Part shown: one piece after another, positions 4,077 through 64,000 of the stretch
Layout of the letters: each line of letters starts with the position of its first letter
How positions within the stretch are numbered: position 1 is the stretch's first letter
NCBI GenBank assembly: GCA_016839555.1
Contig: JAEOUA010000008.1
Coordinates: 1 to 64,000 of the forward strand
Source of the DNA: Promethearchaeota archaeon
Lineage (GTDB): Archaea > Asgardarchaeota > Lokiarchaeia > Sigyniarchaeales > SOKP01
DNA length: 64,000 nt
Direction of reading: 5' to 3'
The notes under the pieces: model-generated
Databases searched by the model: none
The model's input: only the letters and a program-made list of their open reading frames with translations
What the model was told of the DNA's origin: nothing
Program-made: the position numbers and the translations under genes

Positions 4077-4216
4077 ATTTCTGAAGACTAATTTAATATA
4101 TTATTTTTTTAATTATTAGTTTTTTGTATATTAATGATTTTAAATAATTTTATATATTTAAAAATTTATAATAACATTGTAGAATAATAAAATAGCACAC
4201 AATTTGGAGATGATTT

Positions 4217-4711
4217 ATTATCGAGCACGTCTATTATTGTTTTTGTAGTAGAGTTTCTGATTTTTTAAAATTTTATAATTATATGCAATCCTACGGTTTG
4301 AAGGCTTTTATTCATAGAAATTTTATCTTACTACGGAGGATTAAATGTGGGCAAACACCTATTCAACTCTCTGGGGGAAAAGGACTGTATGGAATGATTA
4401 TCAAAGTTGATGAGGAATATAGTGAGTTCTTTAGTGAAATTCAAAGGCAAAAATTCTTTAAAAATATTATTTTGTGTCCATATGATGAATTAAAAGTTAA
4501 GCGAGATGAACATAGACGATTTCCGCAAGCTAAATTTTTTGATCATACAGGTCATATTGGCATTATACAATATGCTTATAAGCACAATTATTTTACATTA
4601 GAGGAATTATCGCTAAAAATTCGAAAAAGAGTTGAAAATATTTTGAAACAAGATCTTTCTAAATTACGTGAGATTTCAATAAAAATGAAAACCAGTTATA
4701 TAGATGATTAA
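4217..4711 (+). CDS. Hypothetical protein, possible partner/immunity gene of the upstream nuclease-tipped protein; start probably upstream of the ATG at 4283
   Basis: Frame open from 4214; SD-like GGAGATGAT at 4206-4214 precedes ATT 4217/ATC 4220; no recognisable motif. Confidence 0.5.
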   Translation: MIEHVYYCFCSRVSDFLKFYNYMQSYGLKAFIHRNFILLRRIKCGQTPIQLSGGKGLYGMIIKVDEEYSEFFSEIQRQKFFKNIILCPYDELKVKRDEHRRFPQAKFFDHTGHIGIIQYAYKHNYFTLEELSLKIRKRVENILKQDLSKLREISIKMKTSYIDD

Positions 4712-4862
4712 TTATTAAACTATACGAAATTTACAAATAAATATTTATATATAAATATTCTTTCATTTTTCACATAAAAAATAATAATAATTAGATTTTT
4801 TAATTATTAAATTATAAATTATATGAAATATATTATTTAAAAACAAATTTAGGCAAGATTAA

Positions 4863-5408
4863 ATGTCTACAACTAAAAGAAAAAGTAGACTTCATAAGTG
4901 TTTAATTTGTGATTATGATTTATGCACTGGTTGTGAAATCTGCGAAAGTGTATGCTCTTTTGTTCACGATGCTGAATTCAATCCAATTAACACAAGAATT
5001 CATAGAGTGCGAATTGAACCCGTTTTTAACATTGCTTTAGCGTGCCAGAAATGCGAAGATGCACCATGTATACGAGCTTGCCCAGAAAAAGCCTTAGATA
5101 AAGATGAAGAGGGTTCTGTTTTAGTTGATGAGGATAAATGCAATGGCTGCGGATTTTGCATCCGTGCATGCGATTTTGGTGTAATCTCACTCCATTTAGA
5201 TACCCAAAAGGCGCTCGTCTGTGATCTATGTGAAAATATGAGAGAAGAGTTTATTGATCCTGAAGTTGGGAAACCTGAACCTCAGTGCATAGAATTGTGC
5301 CCACGAGAAGCTATATCATTGAAAACTGTTGAGCAAATAGGTGAAGAGACCAGAATTGATGCCGTTAAACGATTATTTGGGGAAATGTTAAAAGAATATG
5401 AAAGTTAA
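4863..5408 (+). CDS. 4Fe-4S dicluster electron-transfer protein (DmsB/NrfC-like)
   Basis: CTGCEICESVC, CQKCEDAPCIRAC, CNGCGFCIRAC, CDLC...CIELCP motifs. Confidence 0.9.
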   Translation: MSTTKRKSRLHKCLICDYDLCTGCEICESVCSFVHDAEFNPINTRIHRVRIEPVFNIALACQKCEDAPCIRACPEKALDKDEEGSVLVDEDKCNGCGFCIRACDFGVISLHLDTQKALVCDLCENMREEFIDPEVGKPEPQCIELCPREAISLKTVEQIGEETRIDAVKRLFGEMLKEYES

Positions 5409-5685
5409 TCCCTAAAATTGCTTTTTTTTCTTTTTTATTTTATATCTTTATTATCTTTTATTTTCAATTCATTTATTTTTGAGTTAATTACTAAAAAAAA
5501 ATCAAATAATTAGAAAATAAATCATAAGCCATTTTAAAAATTTAAGTTGACCTTTAAGTTTTTTAATTAAGCATAATCCTTTAAAAAATAAATTATTCTT
5601 AATGAATAATTATTAAGAATTAAGGACAATTTTTTTTTCTAATAATTCATTAATCTAATTAAGAATTTTTTAAAATTAAAAATAT

Positions 5686-5997
5686 TTGGAGGTTTTAACA
5701 ATTTCAATCACACTTAATGTTAATTATGGTCCTCCATTCGATCGATATACAAAAAAAACCAAAGAAATTTTAAAAGTACAACAAGAAATCCAAATCGAAG
5801 AACTAATTTCTCTCCTACAGCAAAAATATGGAGAAGAATTTAAAGAGAATATTTGGAACCAAAAAAATCCCTCAGATTTTCATGGACGTCTCTCCATTGT
5901 GATTAATGGAAGAGCTTTTCGAGATGAAAACTTTTTAAAAAAAGAATTAAAGGATGGAGATAAAGTGTGGCTTATCCATTATTTTTATGGAGGGTAA
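5686..5997 (+). CDS. MoaD/ThiS/SAMP-family ubiquitin-like protein; likely true start ATT 5701
   Basis: IVING...LKDGDKV..YFYGG with C-terminal di-glycine; SD GGAGGT at 5688-5693. Confidence 0.85.
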   Translation: MEVLTISITLNVNYGPPFDRYTKKTKEILKVQQEIQIEELISLLQQKYGEEFKENIWNQKNPSDFHGRLSIVINGRAFRDENFLKKELKDGDKVWLIHYFYGG

Positions 5998-6069
5998 AAT
6001 CTCTCAAACTTCCTTTTTATTTAAACCAAATTATTAAAACTACTAATTATCAATAAGGAGTGATAGAAT

Positions 6070-6426
6070 ATCAAAAAACTTAAATTTAAAATAAGTATAC
6101 CTCTCTCAGGATTAGAAAAAAGTAAAGAATTCACTATAAAAGTCAAAGATGATGCCACATTTATAGAAAGCTTAGCAATGGTAGATAAATATATTAATAA
6201 TCATTCTAAAGAATCAATCTTTCCAATATATGACCAATATATTCACAATTATTTACAATTATTTATTGATTTTACACATGAAAAGATTTATGAGGATGTT
6301 GCTGTAACTGCGTATGCACCGAATGAAAAAGGGCAGTTCATGAAATTCAATCCAGTGGGAGATAATATCGAATTTAATTTATTCCCTAACTCTGAAATAT
6401 ATCTCCAGCCTGATGCGGGTTGTTGA
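6070..6426 (+). CDS. Putative beta-grasp/ubiquitin-like protein ending in PDAGC
   Basis: Frame open from 6067 (IKKLKFKISIPLSGLEKSKEFTIKVKDDATFIESLAM...); SD AAGGAGTGAT just before ATC 6070; follows the MoaD-like gene. Confidence 0.55.
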   Translation: MKKLKFKISIPLSGLEKSKEFTIKVKDDATFIESLAMVDKYINNHSKESIFPIYDQYIHNYLQLFIDFTHEKIYEDVAVTAYAPNEKGQFMKFNPVGDNIEFNLFPNSEIYLQPDAGC

Positions 6427-6687
6427 TGAGACAAGTTTAAACCACGATTAGACATTAAAGAATTTAAAAAAATTATTGCCAAAAAATATGGAAAAGAAAA
6501 TAAATATTTCGCCCATTATTTTAAAAAAACAAAAAAATAGAATGAAATCTTTCAGAAAATATTAGTGAAAGATTGACTGAAGGTATGTGACCTTTATGTT
6601 TGTCAAAAATTAGTTATACTTATTATTTTTACAAAAAAGATAATTCAATCATAAGCTTGAATAAAAAGAATAAAAAAATAGACAAGT

Positions 6688-7187
6688 TTATGTTTTTCTG
6701 GCAAGTTCTATAAGCTCGTTTAAATGTATCACATAGTGAGGAATAGCATATATGAGGATTGAAATTATTCCTCCGATAATACTAAATATAATACTTGCAA
6801 TATAGAGTGTATTACAATACCCCACAAGCTTATTTAATGGTTCCGTAAATTCAGCATTATTCATTAATTTTCGCGCTACAAGAGCCAAGATAAATTTTAT
6901 GTTAAAAGAAAAGAAATAAATGAGAGAAGAAAGCAATGCTTCGAATTAATACCTGGAAAGCCCTCATGAATATGTGCGATCTGTTGAGACTACGTGATGG
7001 GTTCACCAGTGTAGACAGAACGTGGTTGATATTCTCTGTTTGATGATTGCACTATAGGTATTTCTAAAGGATAATTTAATTTAGAAGAAAAGCCTTGTGG
7101 AGTGCGAAAGGGTAGTTTTATTCCACAACAATTATAATATCTTTGATCTGGATTCTGTATTTGCTTATCACAATTCGAACAATGCAC
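6688..7187 (-). pseudogene. Degraded zinc-ribbon + membrane protein gene
   Basis: MHCSNC Zn-ribbon ORF stops at TAG (6990-6992); the frame continues ...FPGINSKHCFLLSFISFLLT*, and the hydrophobic C-terminal part (6688-6936) lies behind further disruptions. Confidence 0.55.
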
Positions 7188-7190
7188 TGT

Positions 7191-7682
7191 TTATGCTATC
7201 CTCGAATCACTTGTAATAGGGATCTTATCGGTCTTATTTTTTTCGAAAATTTCCTGTATAATTCTATAGAAATCTTTTCTTCTATTAACAAAATGAGAAT
7301 ATAGTTCCCCTCTATTTTGTGACGCAGTGAGTCGCCATCGAGTTATTTTCGGATTTCCCCTCCCATCTTTGATAAGTTTCCCCTTTTTGCGTTTCACTAT
7401 TTCTATTTTTATCCGTCCTTTTTTAGGTTTATCGGGAATAATTCTTTCAACATCATACCAACGCACCCATTTACTCTTTCCAATATCTTTTAGTCCATCT
7501 CTCATAAAGCTATACTGTATTCTCCATGCAAATCCATTATCACTAACCACCAATAATCCATAACTTTTTCCGATTTTACATTTTGATATGATAATAGGCT
7601 CTCCTACTGCGTCTGTCGACATCATTTTCTCAAATTTTTTTTGCCTATCAGGAGATAATTCCCATCCTTCAATTACAGGAAT
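7191..7682 (-). CDS. Conserved hypothetical protein, possibly PH-like beta fold; start extended to ATT
   Basis: SD AAGGTGAT precedes ATT at 7682, giving (M)PVIEGWELSPDRQKKFEKMMST... in frame with the 144-aa ORF. Confidence 0.65.
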   Translation of the reverse strand: MPVIEGWELSPDRQKKFEKMMSTDAVGEPIIISKCKIGKSYGLLVVSDNGFAWRIQYSFMRDGLKDIGKSKWVRWYDVERIIPDKPKKGRIKIEIVKRKKGKLIKDGRGNPKITRWRLTASQNRGELYSHFVNRRKDFYRIIQEIFEKNKTDKIPITSDSRIA

Positions 7683-8017
7683 ATATGATCACCTTATTTT
7701 TATTTTTTTTATATTTGTATTTTGATAGTTTCCTCTAAGAACTAATTTTATTTAAAACTTATGTGGGGTGGAAATTAATATTTTTTCTTGATATACTCTC
7801 AGATCATACTATTAGCAATTATCAATAAAAAATAAAATGCAAAAAAGAAGTATAATTGTAATAATAAAAAAGAGATAAAAAGGAGAGAAAAAAAAAGACA
7901 AATAAAGAATCAAAATGCCTAAAATTTGTGAAATTTTAAACTAATCTAAATCTTTATTTTAATGTTAAACTTTTATGCTTGTCTTACATAGAACCTTACT
8001 TGACTTACTTTTATTTA

Positions 8018-8281
8018 CTAATAGTACGACCCTTTTTTATTGAATTTTTTACGTGGTCCTTTCTCAACTATGATGACATTACTAGCTTGGGGGCCTTTCT
8101 TTCCTTCCACTACCTCATATTCTACGATATCTCCTTCATAGATCACTCTGTATTCATCCTCGCCCCCTTTAATGCCACTATAATGTACAAACACATCGTT
8201 GGAACCATCTTCAGGTTGGATAAAACCATAACCCTTCTTTGTGTTGAACCATTTAACGGACCCTTTATGTCTGTCTGCCAT
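8018..8281 (-). CDS. cspA: Cold-shock domain protein
   Basis: [15 protein letters not shown] (RNP1), DVFVHYS (RNP2), KGPQASNV. Confidence 0.95.
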
Positions 8282-8472
8282 TTATTATTACCAAATCTTT
8301 CTTTTAAAAATTATTAAATATATATAACTGTTGAAGACTTTTAAGATAATTAACAAAATAAAGTTTATGATTTTATATAATAAAAATGAAAGGATTCATT
8401 ATATTTTCTTATCTTTACACGACTTCTGTGGATAAAAATTAAACCTGTTGCGTAAATGTGTCTAAAAATTAG

Positions 8473-9387
8473 TTAAAAAAATGTTTTTAGATCTTTTAGC
8501 CTATTTCTTAGGGTCACTTCCGTGATACCCGCTTGCGCAGCAACATCTGTTTGAGTTTTTTGATCAGGACTATGAGCCATTGCCAGATAAAGAGCGGCGG
8601 CAGCAAACCCTCGAGGGTCTTTTCCAGTGGATGTAATTCCTTTTTTAAAGCTTTCACGCAAAATTTTATTGGCTTTTTTTTGCGTTGATAGTTGAAGACC
8701 CAAAATATTTCCAAATTTATAGACAAGTTGTTCAGCAGTGATAGGATGATATTTTAATCCTAATTCGGGTAAGATTTCATTAAGAAGCAATCCCAAAGAT
8801 CTGATCACTTTATGTTTTGAAACTACTAAAGTTTCGCAAATTTCATCAAATGTGAGAGGATATTCATGAATTCTAATTGCGGCATATAATGCAGCTGCGA
8901 TAAAGCCTTTTATTGTTCTCCCTAATGTCATTTGTTTTTTTACAACTTCCACATAAATTTTCCAAGCGGTTTCCTCAATATAAGAAGGTATATTAAGTGC
9001 AGAGGTAAGCATTTTTAATTTAGGTCGTGCTTCCCAGAAATTTCTCTCTATACTCGACACAAGAGATTTTTGTATTTTTGATAATCGAGAAAACAGCGTT
9101 TTTTGCTGGGGACTCATTTTATCTTCTTTTGTAACTTTTGGAATAGTCGTTCGAGGCCCAAATCGTCTCCATCGAGGTTCAGTTCTGCTTCGTTCTCTGA
9201 TTTCCTCCGGGGAAAAGGCTCTTCTCTTGAATGAGACAATATTCCTCATATGAACTGTTCCACAGTTAACACAGACAATCTCTCCATTGATTTGCCTAAT
9301 TTTTGGATTCTCACAACATTTTTCTTCTATTAAATCATTCTCATATTCTTCAAATTCTTGTGAGTTTTCCGTATTGGATTCATTCAT
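8473..9387 (-). CDS. tfb: Transcription initiation factor IIB (TFB) paralogue
   Basis: N-terminal Zn ribbon (CC..CVNCG), two cyclin folds, GKDPRGFAAAALY, TQTDVAAQAGITEVTLRNR. Confidence 0.92.
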   Translation of the reverse strand: MNESNTENSQEFEEYENDLIEEKCCENPKIRQINGEIVCVNCGTVHMRNIVSFKRRAFSPEEIRERSRTEPRWRRFGPRTTIPKVTKEDKMSPQQKTLFSRLSKIQKSLVSSIERNFWEARPKLKMLTSALNIPSYIEETAWKIYVEVVKKQMTLGRTIKGFIAAALYAAIRIHEYPLTFDEICETLVVSKHKVIRSLGLLLNEILPELGLKYHPITAEQLVYKFGNILGLQLSTQKKANKILRESFKKGITSTGKDPRGFAAAALYLAMAHSPDQKTQTDVAAQAGITEVTLRNRLKDLKTFF

Positions 9388-9562
9388 GTTTGAGGATTTG
9401 AAATGACTTTAAGTTTTTAAAAAAAAGATTGACCTAAATTGTGCATTAAAAATTAAAGATAATATGTTATTTAAATCTGTGCTTATTAATTTATAAGAAT
9501 CAGATATGATTATAAATTCTAAAAAAATTATTCTAAAAATTTATTTACATCATTAAATTACT

Positions 9563-9982
9563 ATGTCTATGTATAAAGAAGATTGTTTATTTTGTAAAAT
9601 CGCTAGAGAGGAAATTCCCTCAAGGAAAGTGTTTGAAAATGATTCTACTCTTGCTTTTTTAGACATACGCCCTATGACAAAAGGGCATACAATCGTGATT
9701 CTGAAAAATCATTATGAAACTTTAGCAGATATTAGCAATGAGGATATCACTAATTTATTTCAATCAGTTAAAAAAGTAGCGCAATTACTGTATAATAACT
9801 TAAATATTGAGGGATATAATATTGTAATGAATAATTATGAAGCTGCGGGTCAAGTTATTAAGCATTCTCATGTCCATATCATTCCCAGAAATAAAAGAGA
9901 TGGATTAATAAAATTAGAGATACCAAAGAAAGAAGCTTCAGAAGAACAATTAAATAATGTTATAAAGCAGTTGAAAGACTGA
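9563..9982 (+). CDS. HIT family nucleotide hydrolase
   Basis: DCLFCKI, GHTIVI, AGQVIKHSHVHIIPR histidine triad. Confidence 0.95.
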   Translation: MSMYKEDCLFCKIAREEIPSRKVFENDSTLAFLDIRPMTKGHTIVILKNHYETLADISNEDITNLFQSVKKVAQLLYNNLNIEGYNIVMNNYEAAGQVIKHSHVHIIPRNKRDGLIKLEIPKKEASEEQLNNVIKQLKD

Positions 9983-10128
9983 AATATATCATTATTGTTT
10001 ACAATTTATTTTTCCCTTTTATTAAATTATTCTTTTTTCGACTTTCATATAATAAATATTATTTATTTATAGCACGATAGAACCATTTTTAATCAGGTTT
10101 AAATTTACTTCTCTATTAAGATAAGATA

Positions 10129-10785
10129 ATGGATGTTCTCTCCATTATGTATTATCTAGGTTTAATCATTCTAATAATATTTTTAGTTTGGATTTTCATC
10201 ATATTTGTTGTCCTTCGTATTATTAGAAAATTTTATAAATTTCCAATTCCTGCATTTTTCACACGATTAATTGATAATCCCATCAGAAGGAAGCTTATCC
10301 AAAAACCTAAAACGGTAGCTGAACGTTTAGATTTATCACCAGGAATGAAAGTTTTAGAAATTGGACCGGGAAAAGGGTCTTATACGAAAATTATTGCTAA
10401 GAAAATTTTGCCAGAGGGCGTTGTTTATGCAATAGATATTCAAGATTATATTATAAAGAACTTAAAAGAGGAAATAGAAAAAGAGAAAATATCCAATATA
10501 ATTCCCTTGATTGATAATGCTTACAATTTATCATTTGAAGAAAATAGTATAGATAGAATATTAGCAATCGCCTGTTTACCTGAAATTCCAGAGCCAGTAA
10601 AAGCATTAAAAGAATTTAGAAGAGTTCTTAAAGATGATGGAATTATTTCTTTGAGTGAATTATTTCCGGATCCTGATTATCCAACAAGAAAAAAAGAAAA
10701 GAAATGGGCTAAAGATGCGGGTTTAAAATTTAAAGAAGAATTTGGGAATTGGTTTGTCTATCAGTTGAATTTCGGAAAGAAATAA
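10129..10785 (+). CDS. Class I SAM-dependent methyltransferase with N-terminal membrane anchor
   Basis: VLEIGPGKG motif I, YAIDIQ, ALKEFRRVLKDDG. Confidence 0.9.
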   Translation: MDVLSIMYYLGLIILIIFLVWIFIIFVVLRIIRKFYKFPIPAFFTRLIDNPIRRKLIQKPKTVAERLDLSPGMKVLEIGPGKGSYTKIIAKKILPEGVVYAIDIQDYIIKNLKEEIEKEKISNIIPLIDNAYNLSFEENSIDRILAIACLPEIPEPVKALKEFRRVLKDDGIISLSELFPDPDYPTRKKEKKWAKDAGLKFKEEFGNWFVYQLNFGKK

Positions 10786-10808
10786 TAAGGAAAAAAATAA
10801 TTCAAAAA

Positions 10809-12062
10809 TTAAAAGTATTCATTTTTAATTCTCATCAGAGAAGCATCTATTATAATTAGCCCGCCAAGTATTATGAATGTATACATCAAATTCCAAGTTA
10901 CTAATAATCCAATAATAGGATAAAGAATTGCACGTAAGAGACTGCTAAACATATTTATGGTACTTAAAACAGTTGCTCTATCGTCAATTTTTATTTGTTT
11001 ATTGATTGATTCGATAAAAAAAATCTTTCGAGAAAAACCAAGACCTATAATTAATAACATTAAAATAATACCTATTGATTTTACCAATGTTAACCCCAGT
11101 AAAATAAAGCAAATCCCTGGAATGATCGTATAAATACGGATTAAGAGACTCTTATTTTTAATGTTGGTTCCTAGAGTAGGAACTATATTAGTAAACACCA
11201 CCTGGGAGATAGTCATAGCTGCGGAAACAAATCCAAAATATATCAAATCAATTTCAACTAGTTCTAAGTATGGTTGATATGTCCATATTAAAAAAAATAC
11301 AATTACTTCAAGAAAAATATACTCAAATGCGAAAATTCGAAGCCTTTTTGTATTTTTTAATTCCTTAAAACCGGAAATAATGACTTCTTGATATTTTTTT
11401 TGCCTTGTTTTGATTATGAATTGATTTGGTTCTTTAATTGTAAGGGATGTTATTGTTGCTAAGAAAAATGGAACTACCATTATAAACATTACAAATGGAA
11501 GTGAAATCAATTCTCCGATTATTGACCCTATAGGTGCTGAAATAAAAATCCCTATAAGCAATGAAGATTGAATTCGTGCCATTTTTATATTAATTTTATT
11601 CTGTAGGCCTATTTTTTTTAATGAATCATAGACTATCGCTTGATCGGTTCCCGATATTGAAGCCTGTGAAAAAGCCCATAAGGTCTCTCCTATTGCAAAG
11701 ATAAAAATATTAGGATAACTTGAATAAATTAACGCTGCGAGCACATTTGAGAGACCGCCTAAAAATAATAGAGACTTTCTGCTAATCATATCTGCAATAG
11801 CGCCACATGGAATTTCAAATATCAAAATCATAATTGTAAAATAACTTTCTAAGCACATTATTTCAAAAAAGCTCAGCTTACCCCATTGAGTAAAGAACGG
11901 AATAAGGACTCCAGAAATTAAATGAAAGTTTATTAAAAACTGAAATAGATATAATTTTTTGATATTCGTTTTCCATATTTTTAGATTTTCCATTGAAGTT
12001 TTTTGATTATAATTTGAATTATGCTCTAAAGAGCCACTCTTCTTATTTTCTTTTTCATTCAT
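10809..12062 (-). CDS. MFS transporter
   Basis: ~12 hydrophobic segments; EIPCGAIADMISRK MFS motif A. Confidence 0.9.
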   Translation of the reverse strand: MNEKENKKSGSLEHNSNYNQKTSMENLKIWKTNIKKLYLFQFLINFHLISGVLIPFFTQWGKLSFFEIMCLESYFTIMILIFEIPCGAIADMISRKSLLFLGGLSNVLAALIYSSYPNIFIFAIGETLWAFSQASISGTDQAIVYDSLKKIGLQNKINIKMARIQSSLLIGIFISAPIGSIIGELISLPFVMFIMVVPFFLATITSLTIKEPNQFIIKTRQKKYQEVIISGFKELKNTKRLRIFAFEYIFLEVIVFFLIWTYQPYLELVEIDLIYFGFVSAAMTISQVVFTNIVPTLGTNIKNKSLLIRIYTIIPGICFILLGLTLVKSIGIILMLLIIGLGFSRKIFFIESINKQIKIDDRATVLSTINMFSSLLRAILYPIIGLLVTWNLMYTFIILGGLIIIDASLMRIKNEYF

Positions 12063-12793
12063 ATTTTTTTCAAATCCAATATTTCACATATTACAGGTTT
12101 TTAAGATTTTTTTGAATTCATTATCTAATTTTATATAGACCTAGAAATTTATGTAATATTTTCTTAGAGAGAATATTATAACGAGAATGCATCAAATTAA
12201 ATAAAGAAGTGAATCAGCAAGGTCGAAAAAAGTTAATCCGAAGATTATTCAATGTGTCTATTTTAATATTAATTTTAGTGGAACAGGAGTTTTAATATTT
12301 ATAATATTGATGGCATAGAAATGAAGAGATTGAACTTTCATAATAATTAAGGTGGTATTCTTTCTCATATGTCCAACTCTTTTTCTAAGCATGATACTCA
12401 ACTAAAATTTTAATTAAATTTATAAAATGCTTATTTATATTTAAAGATATTCTTTAAAATGAATTTTTGCGGGAGAAAAATGGGATATTTATACTTTAGT
12501 CTTTGAAAAAAAGTTGGTTTTAAAGGTTTTTAAAGAAATTATCACATTTGATCAAAAAATCTTATTTTAATAATTGAAAAATGAATAATTCTTTAATTAT
12601 TCCATTGAAATGCTATGTTATGAGTATCTATATATATTAATTATTTTAAGTATTCAGAGAGATTTTGATAAAGATTAATCTTTAAAACATTGTAATATTT
12701 CAAAAATTACAATATAACACTAATAATAAAAATAAAAAGGAATTATTCAATCTCAAAAATATTGGAGGTTGTATTAAAGAAAAGGTGGAAAAA

Positions 12794-14755: not shown

Positions 14756-14768
14756 AGAGGCTAAAATA

Positions 14769-15191: not shown

Positions 15192-15193
15192 TT

Positions 15194-15246
15194 ATGTTTC
15201 CTGATGATATGAGATTAAAAAAACGAGAATCTCATTGAAGAAATGG
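15194..15246 (+). promoter_or_regulatory. Eukaryote-like SECIS element in the 3' UTR of hdrA-mvhD
   Basis: TTTC-CTG-ATGA-T-ATGAGATT-[AAAAAAACGAG]-AATCTCAT-T-GA-A-GAAA: AUGA/GA kink-turn core, perfect 8-bp upper helix, A-rich apical loop, lower TTTC/GAAA helix. Confidence 0.88.
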
Positions 15247-20364: not shown

Positions 20365-20442
20365 GCAAAATATTATAATTGTATAATCTCATTTTTTTTA
20401 TTTTAATATATTTATGAATCCAATTTATGGAATAAAGGACAT

Positions 20443-20574
20443 TTAAGCAATTAATGAAATAGAGATAATAATAGCAAGAGAACTTATAATAAATGCTAAA
20501 ATTATAATTAATGTAATCAATGAAGATTTTGAAATCGTTTTTCTCTTCTTTTTCTCTCTTTTATAAGTTGGAAT
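20443..20574 (-). CDS. Putative 43-aa tail-anchored membrane microprotein (ATT start)
   Basis: SD AAGGTGAT + 5 nt + ATT; (M)PTYKREKKKRKTISKSSLITLIIILAFIISSLAIIISISLIA*. Confidence 0.6.
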   Translation of the reverse strand: MPTYKREKKKRKTISKSSLITLIIILAFIISSLAIIISISLIA

Positions 20575-21168
20575 CTTGAATCACCTTAAAATCTATATAT
20601 TTTGCTTAGTTTTTAATTTTCTTTTTTATATCGTTTCTAATATACTTGTAGAACCAAAATCTATTTCTTATAGAAAATGCTCAGATATAATTTTTTAATT
20701 GAAAAAGGATTATTAAGCTTTTTAAAATTTCAATATTCCTCTCTTTTTTCTATTTTATTTAGACTGTAGAAATAAATAATTTTTATGATACGTGAATAAA
20801 TTTATTCTAAGAAGAATATACTAATTAACTCTTTTTTTTATAATATTAATATCAAACATAATTCTCTTAAGCTAGCAACTAATTTATCTTTTTTTTCCAT
20901 TAAACCTTAATTCTTCATAGTTTTCTTTTTTTAGGATGTGATCTATTACATTATAATTTAATTGATACCTTAGTATGGTAGAAATTAATATTATAGATAT
21001 CAAATAGAAATAATTTGCTTTAGCTAGAAATATTTTTGATTAAAAAAAAAATAAACCATTAAGTTTTTAATCAATCGTAAGTGATTATTAACTTAATCTT
21101 TAAAAAAAATATTAAGATTCAATTTAAAAAAAATAATCATAATAAATTAATAAGGATGTGAAAAATTA

Positions 21169-23274
21169 ATGCCTTTATTTGGTGGCGGAGAAAAAGAAAA
21201 AAAGAAGAGAAAAGAAATTGGGTGGGATGTTGAGGATGCCGAGGAAAAACTTGAAGCAGAAGGATTAAGAAGAACAGAAATGGACGTTGGCCGTGTCGAA
21301 TTAATTGATACTGACAAATCTACTCCTGTCATCGAAACGTATGATGAAGATACTGGGGAATTAGAAGGAGCTATCGCGCTAAAAGATGGAAACAGAGAGG
21401 GACTTCTGGCAATTGTGAAGATTATGGAGGAAGTAAATGTAGAGCAGGACCATGAAGCAAAGATTAAATCTATCGATTTTAAAGGTAAACTGAATGTCGA
21501 AAATCCCTCAAAAAAGGATCGTTTATGGGATATCGATTTAAGCTTAAAAAATATAGAAGGAACTAACTTAAAATCTGAAGAGATAAAAATAATTGAATTA
21601 GGTACAGATAAAGATAATAATGTGGATTCAAGAGACTTTAAATTGAGCGGTGAAGCAAAGAATTTACTTCTAGTGAAAGAATATATTAATAGTTTGCCTG
21701 ATGCTGATAGAGTTTTAAATAGAAGAGATATCGAACGAGATTTGGACAGAATTGAGGAAGAAGAAATTGAAGAAGAGTCCACTTCAAGTCAAGCGTTTAA
21801 TTTAGAATCTTATGCTATCCCTATTCAAAAAGAAAATCCAGTCCACTTTACGATTGCTATTAAAAATTTATTTCCGTCTGCAGTGAAAAATATAGAATTA
21901 ACTAAGGAGATTCCTAACGATTTCTTGGACGTAAATATTACTGATACTTCTGCAGGATATGCGGATGTTGGAGAGGGGCAAATTGTATGGACTATCGAAG
22001 AAAAAATCCCTTCTGGAAGCACAATCCTTCTGAAATTTAATGCTTCTGTTATGGCAGAAAGTATTGATAAAATAAGCACCGGAACTATTGATGTCAAATA
22101 CAAAGGAATGTCCTCTTTTGCGAAAGGCTTGGCAATAGACAAATTTGATGCATATACTCGAAACAGATTTTATGTGGATGCTATAGAAAGAGATGAAGAA
22201 CCCGAAGTATGGGATTGCTCTCTCGTGTTTGAAAACACTTCTGAATTTATCTTACAGCTATTAAATGCAGATGTCTATTCTCCTGAGGATGAGTCAGTGA
22301 AATTAGTGGATGTAGACCCTAATGATGTGCCTCCTCTACCGGCCGGCGCACGATGGTTCAGTAAATCTTGGATGTACGAGTCATCGGATATTCCACGATT
22401 TAGTAAACTACTCGAATTTCGAGTAATGCCCGATTTCCAGACAACTGTTAATGGAACCTTAGCTATTGATCAGGTAGAATTATATGTTGCCAGCATCACT
22501 GGAGATGTTGTATATAGTCGTAAAGAAGAGATCAAAAAGAGAGTTGTAGAAACTATCGCAATTCCTACATATAAAGAAACACCTGTCTATGCATCTCTAA
22601 TGATTGAAAATAATGGGTCAGCACCATTTAATGAACTCAAAATCATTCATAGAAACTTTACTTCTGAATTTCGACCTCCCTCTAAGGATGAAATAACAGT
22701 ATTGTGGGATGATAGTGAAATTGAAGTTGATCCAGATGCCATAAGTGTTTCAAAAGAAACGCTTCAAATTTCTATGCGAAATTTAAAAGATTCTACAACT
22801 GGAATGTTTGAACCAGAATCAGTCATAGAAATTCGATATCCTATTCACGGAATGAACCCATCGAAAGAAGCTGTATTCGAATCTGAGGTTGTTTACCTAG
22901 CAAATACTTTACCCGTTAGTCAGGAAATTGAATTCGTTCCAGAAGTACCAGTTATTGAATCTGTTCATCTTAGAAGAAAATTCCGTGTTGGGAAAGAAGT
23001 TATGCCCATTGGAGACCTTGGGACTTACAAAATCATTTTATCCATTGAAAATATTGGTGAAATGCCATTAGAGAACTTAGTATTAATGGATAAAGTGCCA
23101 GATTCTTTCGAATATGGAGAATATTCTATGAAACCAGAAATAACCGATGAAGTGGGAGAAGACACGCTTAAATGGGAAATTGATGAGTTAGAACCAGCCG
23201 AAAGATTAGAAATAACCTATGAGATTACAGGTAAGGGAGAGTATCATCCATCGGATGCCCAGCTCGCCTTATAA
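21169..23274 (+). CDS. Cytoplasmic multi-beta-sandwich protein with mu-homology-like N-terminal part and DUF11/Ig-like domains
   Basis: No signal peptide; IVKIMEEVNVEQDHEAKIKSIDFKGKLNV, FTIAIKN..VKNIELTKEIP..GQIVWTI, TIDVKYKGMSSFAKGLAI; strong similarity to the upstream paralogue. Confidence 0.7.
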   Translation: MPLFGGGEKEKKKRKEIGWDVEDAEEKLEAEGLRRTEMDVGRVELIDTDKSTPVIETYDEDTGELEGAIALKDGNREGLLAIVKIMEEVNVEQDHEAKIKSIDFKGKLNVENPSKKDRLWDIDLSLKNIEGTNLKSEEIKIIELGTDKDNNVDSRDFKLSGEAKNLLLVKEYINSLPDADRVLNRRDIERDLDRIEEEEIEEESTSSQAFNLESYAIPIQKENPVHFTIAIKNLFPSAVKNIELTKEIPNDFLDVNITDTSAGYADVGEGQIVWTIEEKIPSGSTILLKFNASVMAESIDKISTGTIDVKYKGMSSFAKGLAIDKFDAYTRNRFYVDAIERDEEPEVWDCSLVFENTSEFILQLLNADVYSPEDESVKLVDVDPNDVPPLPAGARWFSKSWMYESSDIPRFSKLLEFRVMPDFQTTVNGTLAIDQVELYVASITGDVVYSRKEEIKKRVVETIAIPTYKETPVYASLMIENNGSAPFNELKIIHRNFTSEFRPPSKDEITVLWDDSEIEVDPDAISVSKETLQISMRNLKDSTTGMFEPESVIEIRYPIHGMNPSKEAVFESEVVYLANTLPVSQEIEFVPEVPVIESVHLRRKFRVGKEVMPIGDLGTYKIILSIENIGEMPLENLVLMDKVPDSFEYGEYSMKPEITDEVGEDTLKWEIDELEPAERLEITYEITGKGEYHPSDAQLAL

Positions 23275-23365
23275 ATTCTTTTTGTAAATATAAATCTATT
23301 TTTTTTTATTACCTTTTTATTAATGCTTAAGCCAAATCATCTTACTCTTTTATAAAGATTTCTTG

Positions 23366-26131
23366 TTATTGGTTGAGATCTGGAATTGATTTTTGTTTAT
23401 TTATTGTCCAAAGTGGTAAATCCGTTTTTTGTTTAATAATAAATTTATTTTCTTTTAAAAAGGTGATTTCTTTTTTAATATCTTCTTTCTTATACCCAAA
23501 ATTCAATAGTTCGGTGAAAAGTGCTTCAGTAATAATATATAATTTACTTTGAAATAATTCAATAATAAATTCCCTTAAATTAGTGTGAACTACAGTAAAT
23601 TTTTTCTCAATTTTTTCTTTGGGTTTTGGTAATTTGATTTTGTTAATAATTTCAAGCTTTTTCTTCTTCCCCCATTCAAAATCTGTTATACTTTGAATTT
23701 TTCGGTCATAACCACCATAAATAATCTGTTTCACCCCTTCTCTCTTATTATAAAGAGAAATTATTGACTGAATCGAAGTTTTTCCCGTGGTTTTCCATTT
23801 TAATTTTATATCTGTTGAATCCAATTTATTATTCTGATATACACTTAATTTTCCATGGGAACCACCAACTATTAATTCTTGTGCTCCATCGTCATCTATA
23901 TCGTCAACGCATAATGTTAAAGGTCTTCCTTCGGTAGTTTTAATGTATAATAGCCGATCTCCACTACTATTGAGAATTTTTAAATGAGAATCATTACAAG
24001 CGATGATAATCTCATTATAACCATTATTTGTTATATCAACAACACGAATATCATTAATTCTTTTGCTTAAATCTTTTTGCCATAAGATTTCCAAACTATT
24101 ATTCTCTATGTATATTAGCTGTAAAATACCATTTTGAGTACCTACTAAAAGTCCTAAAATTGGATTTTTTAATTCAGGTAGTTTTAGAGCGCCAACTGTA
24201 CAAGCGGTAACCCATGAGGAATAATAAAGAATAAATTTAGGTTCTTTTGACTCAAGCCCTTCATATATTTTTACTTTTTTCCTTTCTAGACCGAAAATAA
24301 AATCCATGATACCATTTCTGTTTAAATCTCCCGCGCAACAACATAATATCTTTCCTTGGCTTTTTTGATGAAATATTCCCTGTAATTTTTCTTTTTGTTT
24401 ATCGAATTTGAGAACCAGCATATTTCCATCACCCGTTCCTGCCAGAATCTCTTCTATCCCGTCTTGATCAAAGTCTATTGAAAAGGCACAGCGAACCCAT
24501 CCATCAAATTCAATAGAACTTAATAATTTAGCATTTTGATCTAATAAAAACAGTTTTTTATCATGTCCTCCATAAATAAGATACACTTTTTCTTTAGTTT
24601 TTAATGTGCAACAAGTTAAAATTGCTCCTGTAGTATTGAAATCCCAATTAAAATCATAATTTTTAGAGACGAGCGCTCCTTTTCTTTCATTTTCTATTTT
24701 TTCTTCAATTTCGGCTTTTATCTCTGAAAATTTTTCAACAAGCCTCTCATCATTAATTTTTTGTGCTAAATTAATGATATCAGTACAATTTAGAAGAGCA
24801 TTTTGTAATCGTTTTTTTTCTTTATTTGTTTTTAATTCTAAATCCAATTCTTTTATCTGGTCTCCAATTTTTTGTTCCTCATTTCTTTGACGAATATTAT
24901 CCTTAGTATCCTCAATAAGTTGTGCATATTGGCTAATAATGTCTTCTCTTTCAATAGAGGTACTCAATTCTATTATTTTATTGGAAATCTCAATTACTTC
25001 TTCATAATTTTTTTGATCTTGGTCTTTTTTAATTTGTGTTTCTAACTCTTCTATTATATTTATAATTTCCTTTTGTTGTTTAATTTTGTATTTTTCTTCC
25101 ATTAACAGAATAATTTCATCTTTTTGTTTAGTATATTCCTCCCATGTTTTCTCATTATTGATTAAGCTTGCTAATTGAATCACTTCTAATGCAATTTCTA
25201 AAGCTTCTTCGTAATTCTTTCTTTTTTTTACTTCTTTAAATTGTTTTTGTAATTGCGTAATTTTATTATCAAGTACTGCTTTTTCCTTTTCCTTTTCAAT
25301 CTCCTTTTTAATTTCATCGATGATTTTTAGATATTCCTTTTTTTTATTTTTCAAGTTTATAGAGCTGGCAAGATCAATAATTTCCTCGCAATGATTAATG
25401 GCTACATTATATCTTCCCGAATCTCGATTCTCTTTAACTTTTTCCTCTAACACTGCAACATTGCTTTCAATTTTTTCTTTTTCTATTTCTTCAATAATAG
25501 ATTTATATTTATTTTCAATTCCTTTTTTTCTAATAGATTTCGCGATTATAATGATCTCTTCACTTTTTGTAATAGCATCTTCGAATAATTGGTTTTTTCG
25601 ATCTTTTTCTACTCCTTCTTCTAATTTACCAATCTCTTGTAGTTTATTATGGAAATTTTCCTCAGCTTCTTTTATCTCATTCCTTAAAATTCTTAATTGC
25701 TCATTAAAATATATATCTTTTTTTTCCCTCACTAAATCTTCTACGACATCTACTTTAGAAAGAGCCTCCTCAAATTTAGTCAGCTTTTTAAGTTTATTCG
25801 CTTCTTTTATAATATCTTCTACTTTTTCTAATAATTCCGAATCGATTTTTTCTTCTGTGAAATAAAATTTATAATCATATCTTTTCTGTTCAAGCCCCAT
25901 ATCTATACAAGTACTTAGAATAATATTTTTGTAAAAATTTTGCCACATTGCCAGATTTTCGGAAAACCCAGAAGTTTTTAATCTTTCAGTAGCGTCAATT
26001 CGCTTTATATCTATGACATCACGCTTTATAAAATCCTCTCTCTTATATTTTAAGAGATATTGTTTTATTTCATCTTCACGCTCTACAAAAAGCGATTTAT
26101 ACTTTTTAAATAACTCGTCTAATTTTTCCAT
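23366..26131 (-). CDS. Helical-repeat (TPR/MIT-like) + FG-GAP-type beta-propeller + C-terminal winged-helix-like protein
   Basis: ~5 repeats of type K..NYEEAL..A.EII.LA..I; blades DFDQDGIEEILAG, DLNRNGIMDFIFG, DITNNGYNEIIIA, DIDDDGAQELIVG. Confidence 0.75.
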   Translation of the reverse strand: MEKLDELFKKYKSLFVEREDEIKQYLLKYKREDFIKRDVIDIKRIDATERLKTSGFSENLAMWQNFYKNIILSTCIDMGLEQKRYDYKFYFTEEKIDSELLEKVEDIIKEANKLKKLTKFEEALSKVDVVEDLVREKKDIYFNEQLRILRNEIKEAEENFHNKLQEIGKLEEGVEKDRKNQLFEDAITKSEEIIIIAKSIRKKGIENKYKSIIEEIEKEKIESNVAVLEEKVKENRDSGRYNVAINHCEEIIDLASSINLKNKKKEYLKIIDEIKKEIEKEKEKAVLDNKITQLQKQFKEVKKRKNYEEALEIALEVIQLASLINNEKTWEEYTKQKDEIILLMEEKYKIKQQKEIINIIEELETQIKKDQDQKNYEEVIEISNKIIELSTSIEREDIISQYAQLIEDTKDNIRQRNEEQKIGDQIKELDLELKTNKEKKRLQNALLNCTDIINLAQKINDERLVEKFSEIKAEIEEKIENERKGALVSKNYDFNWDFNTTGAILTCCTLKTKEKVYLIYGGHDKKLFLLDQNAKLLSSIEFDGWVRCAFSIDFDQDGIEEILAGTGDGNMLVLKFDKQKEKLQGIFHQKSQGKILCCCAGDLNRNGIMDFIFGLERKKVKIYEGLESKEPKFILYYSSWVTACTVGALKLPELKNPILGLLVGTQNGILQLIYIENNSLEILWQKDLSKRINDIRVVDITNNGYNEIIIACNDSHLKILNSSGDRLLYIKTTEGRPLTLCVDDIDDDGAQELIVGGSHGKLSVYQNNKLDSTDIKLKWKTTGKTSIQSIISLYNKREGVKQIIYGGYDRKIQSITDFEWGKKKKLEIINKIKLPKPKEKIEKKFTVVHTNLREFIIELFQSKLYIITEALFTELLNFGYKKEDIKKEITFLKENKFIIKQKTDLPLWTINKQKSIPDLNQ

Positions 26132-26359
26132 TATTTTTTTTAATTCAGAGAATTCTCTACTTAAGTATCAATAATCTAAATATAATAAGAAACTAATTTA
26201 AACATTTTTGAAAAGAAAATATGGAAAACTCTTAATTAAAATTATAATTAATAATAATCCTATTACTATTATATTTATATACAACGAGATTATTTATGGC
26301 TTTTGATATTACTTTTATAATTAAATATTATAAAATAATAATGACTGAGTAGAAAATCA

Positions 26360-27937
26360 TTGGCAAAAAGTAAAGTAAATAGAATTATTTTATGCATAAT
26401 TGATGATGTTAGGAGCAAGCAATTTTTTCATTTGATTAATAAAGGTTTACTTCCCAATTGTAAGACTTTAATGGAAAATGGGATTTATTCCAAGAATTGT
26501 GTAACTGACTTTCCCGCAATCACTTATCCTACGCAAGTGTCAATAATAACTGGAACATATACAGGTGATTATAGACATGAGAAATGTCATGGAATTCCTT
26601 TATCTAATTGGATGGGTAGAGATTATAATCCCCCACTCATACGGAATTATGGTTCTACTAAATTAGAAATTTATAAAATGAATGAAGATATGGGAAAAAA
26701 TTGTCAAACAATATGCGAAATGATCCCTGAAGGAAATAAAACAAGCATCGCCCAATTTATTAATAGAGGTGTAGACTATTTCTTTCCAAATCGCAAGATT
26801 AAGCTAATTTTTTATTATTTATTGATTAATTATTACAAAAATATCAAAACAATTATTAAATATACGAATAATATTGTCGTTCAAAAATTATTAGAGACTT
26901 TTAAACATCCTACTAAATATTTTGAGACTAATGAAGCTCCAATTTGCTCACTTATTTGGTTTTTAACATCAGATGTTTTAATGCATAGATATGGAAATTC
27001 AGACCCACTATATAAATTGAATCTTTTACATATCGATCGAGTTATTGGAAAATTAATTGCGGGGTTAAAACAATTAGGATATTTAGAAGATACGGCAATT
27101 GCTATCACTTCAGATCATGGGAATTATAGAGCAAATAAAATTGGTAATTTGGATAATATATACGAGGGGCTTGGTCTTGTAAATTATCACCAACGAAAAA
27201 ATATTAGCGTAAATGTGAATATAGCTGAATTCGGAGCACTAGGATTTTTCTATTTTAAATATAACAATTTAGATAGAAAAATTAGATGGGGAAATCCTTC
27301 AATAGAGGAATTGGAGAAATTTGGTCCTAAAAAGATTAATTTATTTGATAAATTGTTTAAAATAGAAGGAACTAAGTTAATGTATTATAAAGATAATAAT
27401 AATACCCATCAGAAAGGACAAATCTTTTTAAAAAGGAGAGTTGGAAAAGAAAATTGTATCCATGGAAGAATAGAATATCGGGGTACAGGAAAACAAATGC
27501 AAGCTCGATATATTTTTGAAAATAATAATGAAAGAGATGTGTTTGGATATTGTAAAGATAAAAGAGCGAGCACATATTTAGATGGAAAATTTCATTCTAT
27601 TGAGGAGTGGTTAGAAGCAACGCATCATTTAGATTTTCCTCTTTATCCGGATCTACTTTGTAGGCATTTTAAAAATCCTCGAAGCGCAGATATAATTTTG
27701 AGCACTGAGGGAACAATTGTTTATAATATTCAGCATGGTAGAAAGAAAAGTAATAATCTATATTCACACGATATTGGTGCGAGAAAGAGTTCAATTGTTC
27801 CCTTAATCATTTCTGGCTCAAATGATATTCCAAAAAGAGAAATAACTTTTTGTAAAATTACTGATATTGTCTCCACGCTTCTAAAATTATTGGGTACCCA
27901 TCCAGCAGAAAGTGCTATAGGAAAAAGTCTAATTTAG
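26360..27937 (+). CDS. Alkaline-phosphatase superfamily (nucleotide pyrophosphatase/phosphodiesterase type) enzyme
   Basis: IILCIIDD, FPAITYPTQVSIITG, DVLMHRYG, ITSDHG. Confidence 0.85.
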   Translation: MAKSKVNRIILCIIDDVRSKQFFHLINKGLLPNCKTLMENGIYSKNCVTDFPAITYPTQVSIITGTYTGDYRHEKCHGIPLSNWMGRDYNPPLIRNYGSTKLEIYKMNEDMGKNCQTICEMIPEGNKTSIAQFINRGVDYFFPNRKIKLIFYYLLINYYKNIKTIIKYTNNIVVQKLLETFKHPTKYFETNEAPICSLIWFLTSDVLMHRYGNSDPLYKLNLLHIDRVIGKLIAGLKQLGYLEDTAIAITSDHGNYRANKIGNLDNIYEGLGLVNYHQRKNISVNVNIAEFGALGFFYFKYNNLDRKIRWGNPSIEELEKFGPKKINLFDKLFKIEGTKLMYYKDNNNTHQKGQIFLKRRVGKENCIHGRIEYRGTGKQMQARYIFENNNERDVFGYCKDKRASTYLDGKFHSIEEWLEATHHLDFPLYPDLLCRHFKNPRSADIILSTEGTIVYNIQHGRKKSNNLYSHDIGARKSSIVPLIISGSNDIPKREITFCKITDIVSTLLKLLGTHPAESAIGKSLI

Positions 27938-28173
27938 AAAATACTTATAATAAAAAGATCAAAAAAAGTATAATAAATTATAATATTTATTTCTGATTCA
28001 ATACGAATCTTTTATTATTGATGTTCTTACCATAAATAACAGGGTTTTGTAATTATATATTAAAATAATAAATTTATATTTAGAATGATCAAAAATATAT
28101 ATATAAAATATATAGATTAATATTATATTCTATATTTCTTTAATCAAAAACAAATAAAAGATAGGAAACAAAA

Positions 28174-29184
28174 ATGTATAATATTGAGACTCGTAAAGTT
28201 CAACAAACTGGGGGCTCATCTTATATAGTGAGTCTTCCAAAACCATGGATAGAAAAAAATAATATTGAGAAAAAAGATACGGTAGGGATTATAGCACAAC
28301 CCGATGGAAATCTGTTAATCACTCCTAAGATTAATTCCGAAGACATTTTAAAATCGAAAGAAATTATTGCCGATGAGTATGAAGATTATAATTTCTTATT
28401 TCGAGTACTAATCTCAACATATATCATGGGATTTTCACAGATTATCATAAAATCCAGTAAAAAATTTGAACCCTTTATTAGAAATTGTATTACGGATTTC
28501 ACTCAAATTACGATTGGTCCAGAAATTGTGGAGGAAACTAATACGTATATTTCGATAAAGGATCTTCTTAATCCAAAAGAAATGCCCTTTGATAAAACAA
28601 TCAAGCGAATGTATATTTTAGCAGAGAGCATGCATGAAGATGCAATTAGAGCTTTAAAAGAAAAAAACAAAAAATTAGCTGATGAGGTTATTAATCGAGA
28701 CGATGATATCGACAGATTGCATTGGCTAATCGGCAGGCAATCGAATATAGTTCTGAGAGATATTATGCTTTCTCAAAAAATGGGAATCAATCTGGAGGAT
28801 GCTAATTATTACCAGCAAATGAGTAGATATCTGGAACGAATAGCGGACCATGCGGTTAGAGTCGCACGAAACGTTAAAAACTTAATCAAAAACGGAATTA
28901 AACAGGAATTAATCGAAAAAATCTCAAACGCAAGTAAAATTGCCTTAGAACTTTTAAATCAGAGTTTAACGGCGAGGATGAATAAAGATATAAAATTGGC
29001 AAATGAAAATATTGAATCTGTGTCTAAATTAGTAAATGCATGTGAAAATATTACGCTTGAACCTATTCAAAACTATATAGATACATCCATAGCCATAGGT
29101 TATATTGTCGAAAGTATCAGAAGAACGGGTGAGTACTCTGCTGATATTTCTGAGCTTGTTATTAATAATTTAATAAATTCTTAA
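28174..29184 (+). CDS. phoU: Archaeal phosphate-uptake regulator (AbrB + PhoU domains)
   Basis: ETRKVQQTGGSSYIVSLPKPW; RDDDIDRL; YLERIADHA. Confidence 0.92.
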   Translation: MYNIETRKVQQTGGSSYIVSLPKPWIEKNNIEKKDTVGIIAQPDGNLLITPKINSEDILKSKEIIADEYEDYNFLFRVLISTYIMGFSQIIIKSSKKFEPFIRNCITDFTQITIGPEIVEETNTYISIKDLLNPKEMPFDKTIKRMYILAESMHEDAIRALKEKNKKLADEVINRDDDIDRLHWLIGRQSNIVLRDIMLSQKMGINLEDANYYQQMSRYLERIADHAVRVARNVKNLIKNGIKQELIEKISNASKIALELLNQSLTARMNKDIKLANENIESVSKLVNACENITLEPIQNYIDTSIAIGYIVESIRRTGEYSADISELVINNLINS

Positions 29185-29305
29185 AACTTTTTTTATGCTT
29201 TTTATAGCTTTTTTTAACATTTAATAAAAAAATTTTGATTAATTGAAATTATTAAGGTAGAAATAATTATTCAAAATAATTTTGGTATATAAAATAAAAA
29301 TATAC

Positions 29306-30400
29306 TTATACTTTTTTTGGTGGAGGGACAAAAACTTCTCGTAAACCGGTCCGTTTTAAAATTATCGCTTCTTCAGGACAATGGTGTACACAGAGACCGC
29401 AGCCAATACATTTATTTTCATTCAAAACTGCAATTGTATCTTCTAAGTGAATTGTTTCCATTGGACAAATATTAACGCAGGTACCACATCCAATACATTT
29501 CTCATCAATAATTTGGGAAATATATGAAGTGTAACAATGATATGGCATGATTCCCTTATAATAAAGCTGGAAAATTCCACAACAGCATTTACAGCAATTA
29601 CATAAAGCTTCCTCTTCTTTTTCTGTATCAGAATGAATATGAAAGGCTTTATGAACTAATCCATCATCTTCAGCAGAAATTAATAATTTTATTACCTCTT
29701 CTTTACTTGCTGGTCTTCCGAAGTTATGATCAATTACAAACTGAGCACTTTTACCGAATAGAAAGCAGTTCTTTCGCTCATCAGTGACCTTACATGGATC
29801 CCCTAATAGATCTTTCTCGTGTCGACAATAACAATGAACTAACGCTATATTATCATAATTATCAATAATTTTCGAAACTTCCTCAAAAGGAATAACTGTT
29901 TCTCCTTTTATATCCTTAATTTCTTCCTCCACAGGAACGATTCTATCAATGGGAGGGAAGTTTTTAAATTGGGGTACTATATTTTCATAATTACTTTGAG
30001 TAATTTCGCTCATTTCTTTAAAGAGTTTATCAAATAGCTGTACTAATCTTTTTTCTTTTTCGCTAGTTTCTCCTTTCATGAGAGTATATTCAAAAATGCC
30101 AGGAAAAGGAGACATTAAACGATATACTGTTATTCTTTTGGATCGTGATTGAGTTCCCACTATAATACCATTATTCATCAAATCATTAAGAATTTTCAAG
30201 ATAGTTTCTTCATTTAAATCAGTCTTTTTTTTGATTTGATCCATATTTAGGCTAGGCTTTAAAAACACAGAAGCAATGAATTCTGCATATTCTTCCTTGA
30301 TTAGGATCTGCAATATTTCAATTAAAGTTTGATTGATAGGAAAAGGTATATTCCCAGCATTTACAATTCTCCTTGCTACTTTATACCATGTTTTGTCTAT
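29306..30400 (-). CDS. HTH + 4Fe-4S ferredoxin domain protein; N-terminus extended beyond the ORF call
   Basis: CYCR, CNCCKCCC, two CxxCxxCxxxCP motifs; frame open upstream (IDKTWYKVARRIVNAGNIPFPINQTLIEILQ) with only ATA/ATT codons available as starts. Confidence 0.8.
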   Translation of the reverse strand: MDKTWYKVARRIVNAGNIPFPINQTLIEILQILIKEEYAEFIASVFLKPSLNMDQIKKKTDLNEETILKILNDLMNNGIIVGTQSRSKRITVYRLMSPFPGIFEYTLMKGETSEKEKRLVQLFDKLFKEMSEITQSNYENIVPQFKNFPPIDRIVPVEEEIKDIKGETVIPFEEVSKIIDNYDNIALVHCYCRHEKDLLGDPCKVTDERKNCFLFGKSAQFVIDHNFGRPASKEEVIKLLISAEDDGLVHKAFHIHSDTEKEEEALCNCCKCCCGIFQLYYKGIMPYHCYTSYISQIIDEKCIGCGTCVNICPMETIHLEDTIAVLNENKCIGCGLCVHHCPEEAIILKRTGLREVFVPPPKKV

Positions 30401-30531
30401 TTTAATAAATATCCCTTTTTTTTAAATATTTAAAAGAATTTTTAAATGAAAAAGTTGTAATAAAAAAGCTAATAATATTGAAAAAGTTAATCATTAATAT
30501 CCAACTCATAAACAGCTAAAAATGGAAATGA

Positions 30532-63999: not shown

Positions 64000-64000
64000 T

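Follow-up and report, generated by a model that had tools for sequence, protein, structure and literature searches.

ATT and ATA as probable Shine-Dalgarno-led start codons in a lineage of Loki-type Asgard archaea

Initiation at AUU behind a Shine-Dalgarno (SD) motif is known in bacteria from the Escherichia coli genes infC, which encodes IF3, and pcnB. NCBI table 11 counts ATT, ATC, and ATA among the possible initiators, and mitochondria initiate at AUA, AUU, and AUC. For archaea, a genome-wide account of AUU/AUA starts was not found in the open-access papers searched; the only find was a remark on a single Asgard tubulin gene, in which a "rare ATT start codon" lies upstream of the annotated Met (PMC13394414). 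Here, we analyzed the start codons of a 64,000-nucleotide stretch of DNA (the window), which covers the initial 64 kb of contig 7 in the assembly GCA_016839555.1 of a Promethearchaeota archaeon. The assembly is a metagenome-assembled genome (MAG) of 3.74 Mb in 12 contigs, with a GC content of 29.5%, a completeness of 92%, and an estimated contamination of 6%. Its 16S rRNA gene is archaeal; only the first ~660 nt are present, at a contig end. Relatives of its family-B DNA polymerase, at 66-76% identity, come almost exclusively from MAGs of Promethearchaeota/Promethearchaeia, the Loki-type Asgard archaea.

The preliminary description of the window had proposed that at least six genes begin at ATT, ATC, or ATA, most of them behind strong SD motifs, and that the organism routinely initiates on these codons (AUH in the mRNA). 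We believe it highly likely that ATT and ATA, and rarely ATC, are used as SD-led start codons in this lineage of Loki-type Asgard archaea, with the codon 8-10 nt past the SD and with probable decoding by the methionyl initiator tRNA (Met-tRNAi). Very probably, a quarter to a third of the genes with a clear ribosome-binding site (RBS) start at ATT or ATA (ATC being rare), and the six flagged genes are among them. Routine initiation at ATT and ATA is supported by four independent lines of evidence: genome-wide SD statistics, the starts of orthologues, domain boundaries, and public gene calls.

Spacing (aligned spacing) denotes the distance of the start codon from the end of the GGAGG register. 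SD 5-mers before the first ATG clustered at 7-13 nt with a peak at 8-10 nt (2,815 frames of at least 150 codons), and the SD was used by only a minority of genes. For the genome-wide count, the SD set comprised every 6-mer of GGAGGTGATCC, and a codon had to open a frame of at least 80 codons with an in-frame stop within 15 codons upstream. Behind these 6-mers, the canonical codons at an aligned spacing of 8-10 nt were ATG (53), TTG (29), and GTG (6). At the same spacing, ATT was found 34 times, ATA 24 times, and ATC 4 times, and the same-composition controls TTA, TAT, and AAT were found 3-5 times each. A raw count of codons behind SD 6-mers without the open-frame filter, as proposed in the preliminary description, gave no enrichment, not even of ATG; such raw counts are uninformative because most copies of the motif fall within genes. 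Once the filter was applied, ATT and ATA were enriched after the SD.

The enrichment was also measured on SDs without a canonical start, from which every SD having any canonical start at a spacing of 5-14 nt had been removed. ATT (31) and ATA (23) together made up 54 of the 121 codons at spacing 8-10, where the rate at the ten flanking spacings (ATT 20 and ATA 20 of 394) predicted ~12. The odds ratio was 6.4 for ATT (p = 1.6e-9) and 4.4 for ATA (p = 1.3e-5). Reversed and complemented decoy motifs, put genome-wide through the same test, were flat and showed no enrichment.

With 5-mer SDs, the counts were 73 for ATT, 51 for ATA, and 15 for ATC, versus 185 for ATG, 69 for TTG, and 17 for GTG. After subtraction of the flank rate, ~42 (6-mers) to ~86 (5-mers) ATT/ATA/ATC starts were left, a net share of ~24-32% of SD-led starts and at least ~2% of the ~3,900 frames of at least 100 codons. 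The candidates were present on all 12 contigs. The residue following an SD-led ATT, ATA, or ATC was Ser in 27% and Lys in 18% of cases, and Ser followed internal ATT/ATA in only 7%. A 400-kb sample from another genus of the family gave ATT 9, ATA 8, and ATC 2 versus ATG 15, TTG 8, and GTG 3, with 0-1 for the controls.

The six sites of the window, together with one gene that was absent from the preliminary description, are as follows.

4206..4214, plus strand: SD-like motif of site 1, GGAGATGAT, read directly; one mismatch to GGAGGTGAT
4217..4711, plus strand: gene 1, 164 aa, no known family; start ATT 4217, alternative ATC 4220
5688..5693, plus strand: SD of site 2, GGAGGT; aligned spacing 8 nt to ATT 5701
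5701..5997, plus strand: gene 2, ThiS/MoaD-like with a GG C-terminus, 98 aa; start ATT 5701
6057..6064, plus strand: SD of site 3, GGAGTGAT, read directly
6070..6426, plus strand: gene 3, 118 aa, no known family; start ATC 6070
7687..7694, minus strand: SD of site 4, AGGTGATC; eight-base match, aligned spacing 9
7191..7682, minus strand: gene 4, 163 aa, no known family; start ATT 7682
20580..20586, minus strand: SD of site 5, AGGTGAT; seven-base match, aligned spacing 9
20443..20574, minus strand: gene 5, small membrane protein, 43 aa; start ATT 20574
29306..30400, minus strand: gene 6, winged-helix and 2x[4Fe-4S] protein, 364 aa; start most likely ATA 30400, possibly ATT 30406; no SD
58999..59685, minus strand: protein disulfide oxidoreductase (PDO); start ATA 59685 after GGAGGTGGT (59698-59690)

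Direct reading of the sequence located all six motifs and codons where the preliminary description had placed them. Its statement that they follow strong SDs stood for sites 2-5, which match GGAGGTGATCC in 6-8 bases; the site 1 motif contains a single mismatch, and nothing at site 6 qualifies as a real SD. The aligned spacing was 8-9 nt at sites 2-5 and 6 or 9 nt at site 1. An in-frame stop lies 1-7 codons upstream of each of the six ATT/ATA/ATC codons, and the frames they open run for 164, 98, 118, 163, 43, and 364 codons (genes 1-6). The first in-frame ATG, GTG, or TTG follows 22, 66, 36, 19, 18, and 29 codons downstream at sites 1-6, respectively. No family was obtained from Pfam or NCBIfam for genes 1, 3, and 4.

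Translation might instead begin at the first downstream ATG, GTG, or TTG, in which case the open upstream stretch and the pairing of an SD with ATT, ATA, or ATC would be coincidental. This agrees with the public gene calls, and open leaders of ~20 codons are not unusual by chance at 29% GC (in 22% of long open reading frames (ORFs), the first ATG is preceded by 20 codons or more). However, the enrichment is confined to ATT and ATA at spacing 8-10, no SD precedes the downstream canonical codons of sites 3 and 4, and the leader is conserved as protein, with orthologues beginning at the aligned codon (within one codon at site 2). A downstream start would also behead Pfam domains, such as the P-loop of Ras, the receiver domain, and ETF. 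We consider it very improbable.

Domain boundaries were examined by a Pfam scan of 20 genome-wide candidates, 11 of which had a domain beginning well upstream of the first canonical codon. The domain, the residues matched, and the number of codons downstream to the first canonical start were Response_reg, 4-114, 35; Ras, 11-176, 26; ETF, 10-177, 47; Snf7, 23-181, 72; CpXC, 9-91, 67; Zn ribbon, 2-25, 114; DUF6506, 4-89, 32; and ADC, 20-244, 26. The remainder of the 11 comprised two candidates with a match to the ABC-2 family and one with a weak match to Roc. In the PDO gene, position 2 of the NCBIfam PDO profile aligned with residue 5 counted from ATA 59685, and the GTG chosen by ORF callers sits within the SD.

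At sites 1, 3, 4, 5, and 6, the start codon of orthologues (mostly ATG, some TTG) falls on the aligned codon; at site 2, it is no more than one codon away. The N-terminal extensions seen in the preliminary description are kept as protein in orthologues. At site 1, ATG is aligned with ATT 4217 in three homologues, one paralogue and two from the same genus (L141, L139, L142), and this ATG lies seven residues before a conserved C-F motif. As a separate observation, a fourth homologue of gene 1 (L138, in the same-genus MAG G071) has its ATG-led N-terminal part out of frame with the remainder, which reflects a frameshift or an assembly error. Gene 2 has a Met codon nowhere in frame, and Pfam ThiS spans its residues 18-98. 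The orthologue Met lies one codon inside of ATT 5701; two orthologues also have ATT (L105, L093), and in one of these the ATT matches TTG in its nearest relative.

Gene 4 has 16 homologues in 12 other genomes, in addition to a paralogue, which align from residue 1 and share a conserved P-[IV]-x-x-G-W-E directly after the start; the aligned codon is ATG in 11, TTG in 2, and ATA in 2. At site 5, two same-genus orthologues with the N-terminus MPTYKRKKK (L280, L281) have ATG at the aligned codon. The nearest orthologue of gene 6 (L144, 72% identical) has ATG exactly at ATA 30400, MDKKWYK versus IDKTWYK, and is likewise without an SD. A start at the first canonical codon, 29 codons in, would delete the conserved WYKxAR... 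N-terminus of gene 6; among its paralogues within the genome, only one aligns at the N-terminus. ATG, ATT, and ATA exchange freely among orthologues at sites 1, 4, 5, and 6, which fits AT-biased mutation acting on a tolerant initiation machinery.

Site 3 behaves differently. Across 31 homologues from 13 genera, the window gene included, the aligned start is ATT in 20, ATA in 4, ATG in 3, ATC in 2, GTT in 1 (L114), and TTA in 1 (L124), and a strong SD stands ahead of most of them. Judged from this alignment, the weak start codon is the conserved state here. In several relatives, the gene occurs in tandem with a paralogue (L117, L119, L120, L121, L127, L130), and both copies have ATT or ATA behind strong SDs.

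The codons could also be relics of start-codon loss in pseudogenes, or assembly or sequencing errors. The source is a MAG with estimated contamination, and a single transition or transversion turns ATG into ATA or ATT. However, the frames are intact, the N-termini are conserved, the candidates are spread over all 12 contigs, and the same codon type recurs in independent MAGs of 13 genera, including the ATT of most site-3 homologues. The aIF1 gene, which is presumably essential, has ATT or ATC at all of its family loci. We regard pseudogenes or errors as a scarcely credible source of the pattern.

In the genome of the window, aIF1 (SUI1; G000:C6:232950-233267, plus strand) begins at ATT and has no canonical start before the zinc knuckle. 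The loci compared were L229-L278 and L292-L331. Within the family, the aIF1 start is ATT at 28 and ATC at 2 of 30 loci, directly following an in-frame stop. The homologous codon in the sister family is ATG, TTG, GTG, or ATA, and aIF1 has ATG or GTG in many members of other Asgard families. Several other families also have aIF1 genes without a canonical start, with ATA behind AGGAGG (L308, L318, L319) or with CTG (L303, L304, L329, L331, L294, L295). The maintenance of ATT across many genera at site 3 and in aIF1 suggests that the weak codon is used for regulation there.

Archaeal aIF1 is reported to favour discrimination against non-canonical starts, and near-cognate initiation in eukaryotes to be controlled by eIF1 (PMC6237735). 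By analogy, the conserved near-cognate start of aIF1 would parallel the autoregulation of infC and eIF1, a parallel that falls short of proof. We tentatively propose that aIF1 may be held in check Asgard-wide by the near-cognate codon at which its own gene starts, which is ATT in this family and ATA or CTG in several others. Next to the feedback loops of infC (AUU) and eIF1 (poor context), this would be a third one, independent of both, and the set-point in this family would be so permissive that AUU and AUA are ordinary starts for at least a quarter of SD-led genes. If this is true, the feedback set-point sits in those archaea that, among the known ones, are most closely related to eukaryotes. 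Through the start codon of aIF1, the feedback model can be tested directly.

For the mechanism, we suggest that the SD, as part of GGAGGTGATCC, pairs with the complementary 3' end of 16S rRNA and sets the small subunit so that a codon 8-10 nt downstream enters the P site. This codon would often be AUU or AUA, and rarely AUC, in place of AUG, UUG, or GUG. Most likely, the ordinary Met-tRNAi, whose anticodon is CAU, would decode AUU and AUA despite a mismatched third codon base, and the proteins would retain Met at the N-terminus. Five relatives, one of them from the same genus, have a 16S 3' end that reads ...CUGGAUCACCUCC, which shows the SD register used here to be correct. In one same-genus and three same-family genomes, the initiator tRNA has the canonical GGGCUCAUAACCC anticodon arm with CAU and introns in the D-loop or at 37/38; near-cognate decoding by Met-tRNAi is therefore probable. 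The relaxed start-codon selection named in the preliminary description would then correspond to a lowered stringency of start-codon proofreading.

A change of the genetic code (ATA or ATT to Met) was considered and rejected: internal ATT, ATA, and ATC interchange as Ile at conserved positions, such as the residue before the first Cys of aIF1.

The AUU and AUA starts could be real and yet be read by an initiator with a modified C34, by a second initiator-like tRNA, or by initiation with Ile. A modified C34 has a precedent in f5C34 of mitochondrial tRNA-Met. The initiator tRNA was not found in this assembly by ARAGORN with and without introns, Rfam tRNA matches, anticodon-arm patterns, or BLAST with the tRNAi of a relative; its gene is probably missing from the assembly. 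Only ~25-28 tRNAs were detectable genome-wide because many carry introns, long or oddly placed, and the high share of ATT/ATA/ATC may need more than passive tolerance. Against these points, only one initiator gene is recognisable in relatives of the same genus and family, and it has CAU and three G:C pairs; no tRNA with an initiator-like arm and a different anticodon was seen. Such a special decoder is unlikely in our opinion. On the introns themselves, those of the initiator tRNA lie in the D-loop region in L282 (G011) and L285 (G039) and after position 37 in G012, G043, G069, and G022. An intron-containing tRNA (anticodon arm GCA, Cys) was found with the Rfam tRNA model at 54469-54566 on the minus strand of the window, where ARAGORN with default settings gave none.

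Several points count against SD-led initiation at ATT and ATA with decoding by Met-tRNAi. The evidence comes from sequence comparison. Part of the genome-wide candidates are chance, with a background of ~1/4 for 6-mer SDs and nearer 40% for 5-mers. ATC was not enriched genome-wide (2 observed versus ~2.4 expected), so the earlier proposal of routine AUH initiation is upheld for ATT and ATA and is not borne out for ATC, which is rare. Two closed genomes of the sister family gave only a weak signal in 400-kb samples of low power. The ATA or ATT start of site 6 is not explained by SD positioning because there is no SD; for this gene, a leaderless start, in which the transcript would begin at the start codon, was considered. 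The assembly contains neither the initiator tRNA nor the 16S 3' end, and both were read from relatives.

If ATT, ATA, and ATC are used as starts, public gene calls cut these proteins short. The preliminary description had predicted such truncation by standard annotation, and public collections hold exactly the shortened products of three genes: 142 aa from ATG 4283 for gene 1, 82 aa from ATG 6178 for gene 3, and 144 aa from ATG 7625 for gene 4. For gene 2, they hold the 103-aa form from TTG 5686, a codon inside the SD. In each genome of this lineage, gene finders limited to ATG, GTG, and TTG would give dozens of proteins or more a shortened or misplaced N-terminus. Among those affected would be eukaryote-like signature proteins expressed and solved from such calls, for example the Ras-like GTPases and ESCRT-III here and the tubulin of PMC13394414. 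Re-annotation that allows ATT and ATA after an SD is simple and would alter many sequences used in structure, phylogeny, and biochemistry.

Three further observations concern the surroundings of these genes. Gene 3, conserved and 118 aa long, comes after gene 2 (ThiS/MoaD-like with a GG C-terminus), and the two (5701-6426, plus strand) may be part of a ubiquitin-like modifier cluster. The PDO gene has a paralogue in tandem (58999-60430, minus strand); the downstream copy starts from ATA 59685 and the upstream copy is called from GTG 60430. A 427-codon frame runs off the end of the window (63259-64000, minus strand, on to C7:64542) and is one of the genome-wide candidates, with ATA behind TGGTGAT just outside the window.

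As in E. coli infC and pcnB, a near-cognate AUH codon stands at a normal spacing behind an SD and would be read by the ordinary initiator tRNA. As with infC, the gene of a proofreading factor itself starts at AUU (infC there, aIF1 here). Unlike E. coli, where a handful of genes is involved, these codons account here for ~24-32% of SD-led starts and for ~2% of genes or more. The setting is also different, being archaeal with the eukaryote-type factors aIF1, aIF1A, and aIF2, and autoregulation of the infC type is proposed here by analogy only. As in mitochondria, codons that differ from AUG at the third position are regular starts in an AT-rich genome; however, internal AUA is Met in mitochondria, which have a modified tRNA-Met, whereas internal ATA, ATT, and ATC remain Ile here. 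Eukaryotic near-cognate initiation involves the same factor family (SUI1), which is expected to set the stringency toward AUU and AUA. Eukaryotes mostly use CUG, GUG, and ACG through scanning and at low efficiency, whereas here AUU and AUA would be positioned by the SD as the main start of ordinary genes. With AUU and AUA tolerated at such a rate alongside eukaryote-type initiation factors, the lineage would offer a natural experiment on what determines the stringency of start-codon choice.

The closest archaeal case is the tubulin ATT (PMC13394414), where, as here, the upstream codon restores a missing N-terminal part (a strand in tubulin) and gives a plausible RBS distance. That remark concerned one gene in another Asgard class, called the codon rare, and came without a genome-wide or comparative analysis. 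AUU/AUA starts as such are already known. What is added here is the orthologue evidence at six sites, the effect size, the conservation of ATT among the homologues of gene 3, a canonical initiator tRNA in relatives, and the start codon of aIF1 across the phylum.

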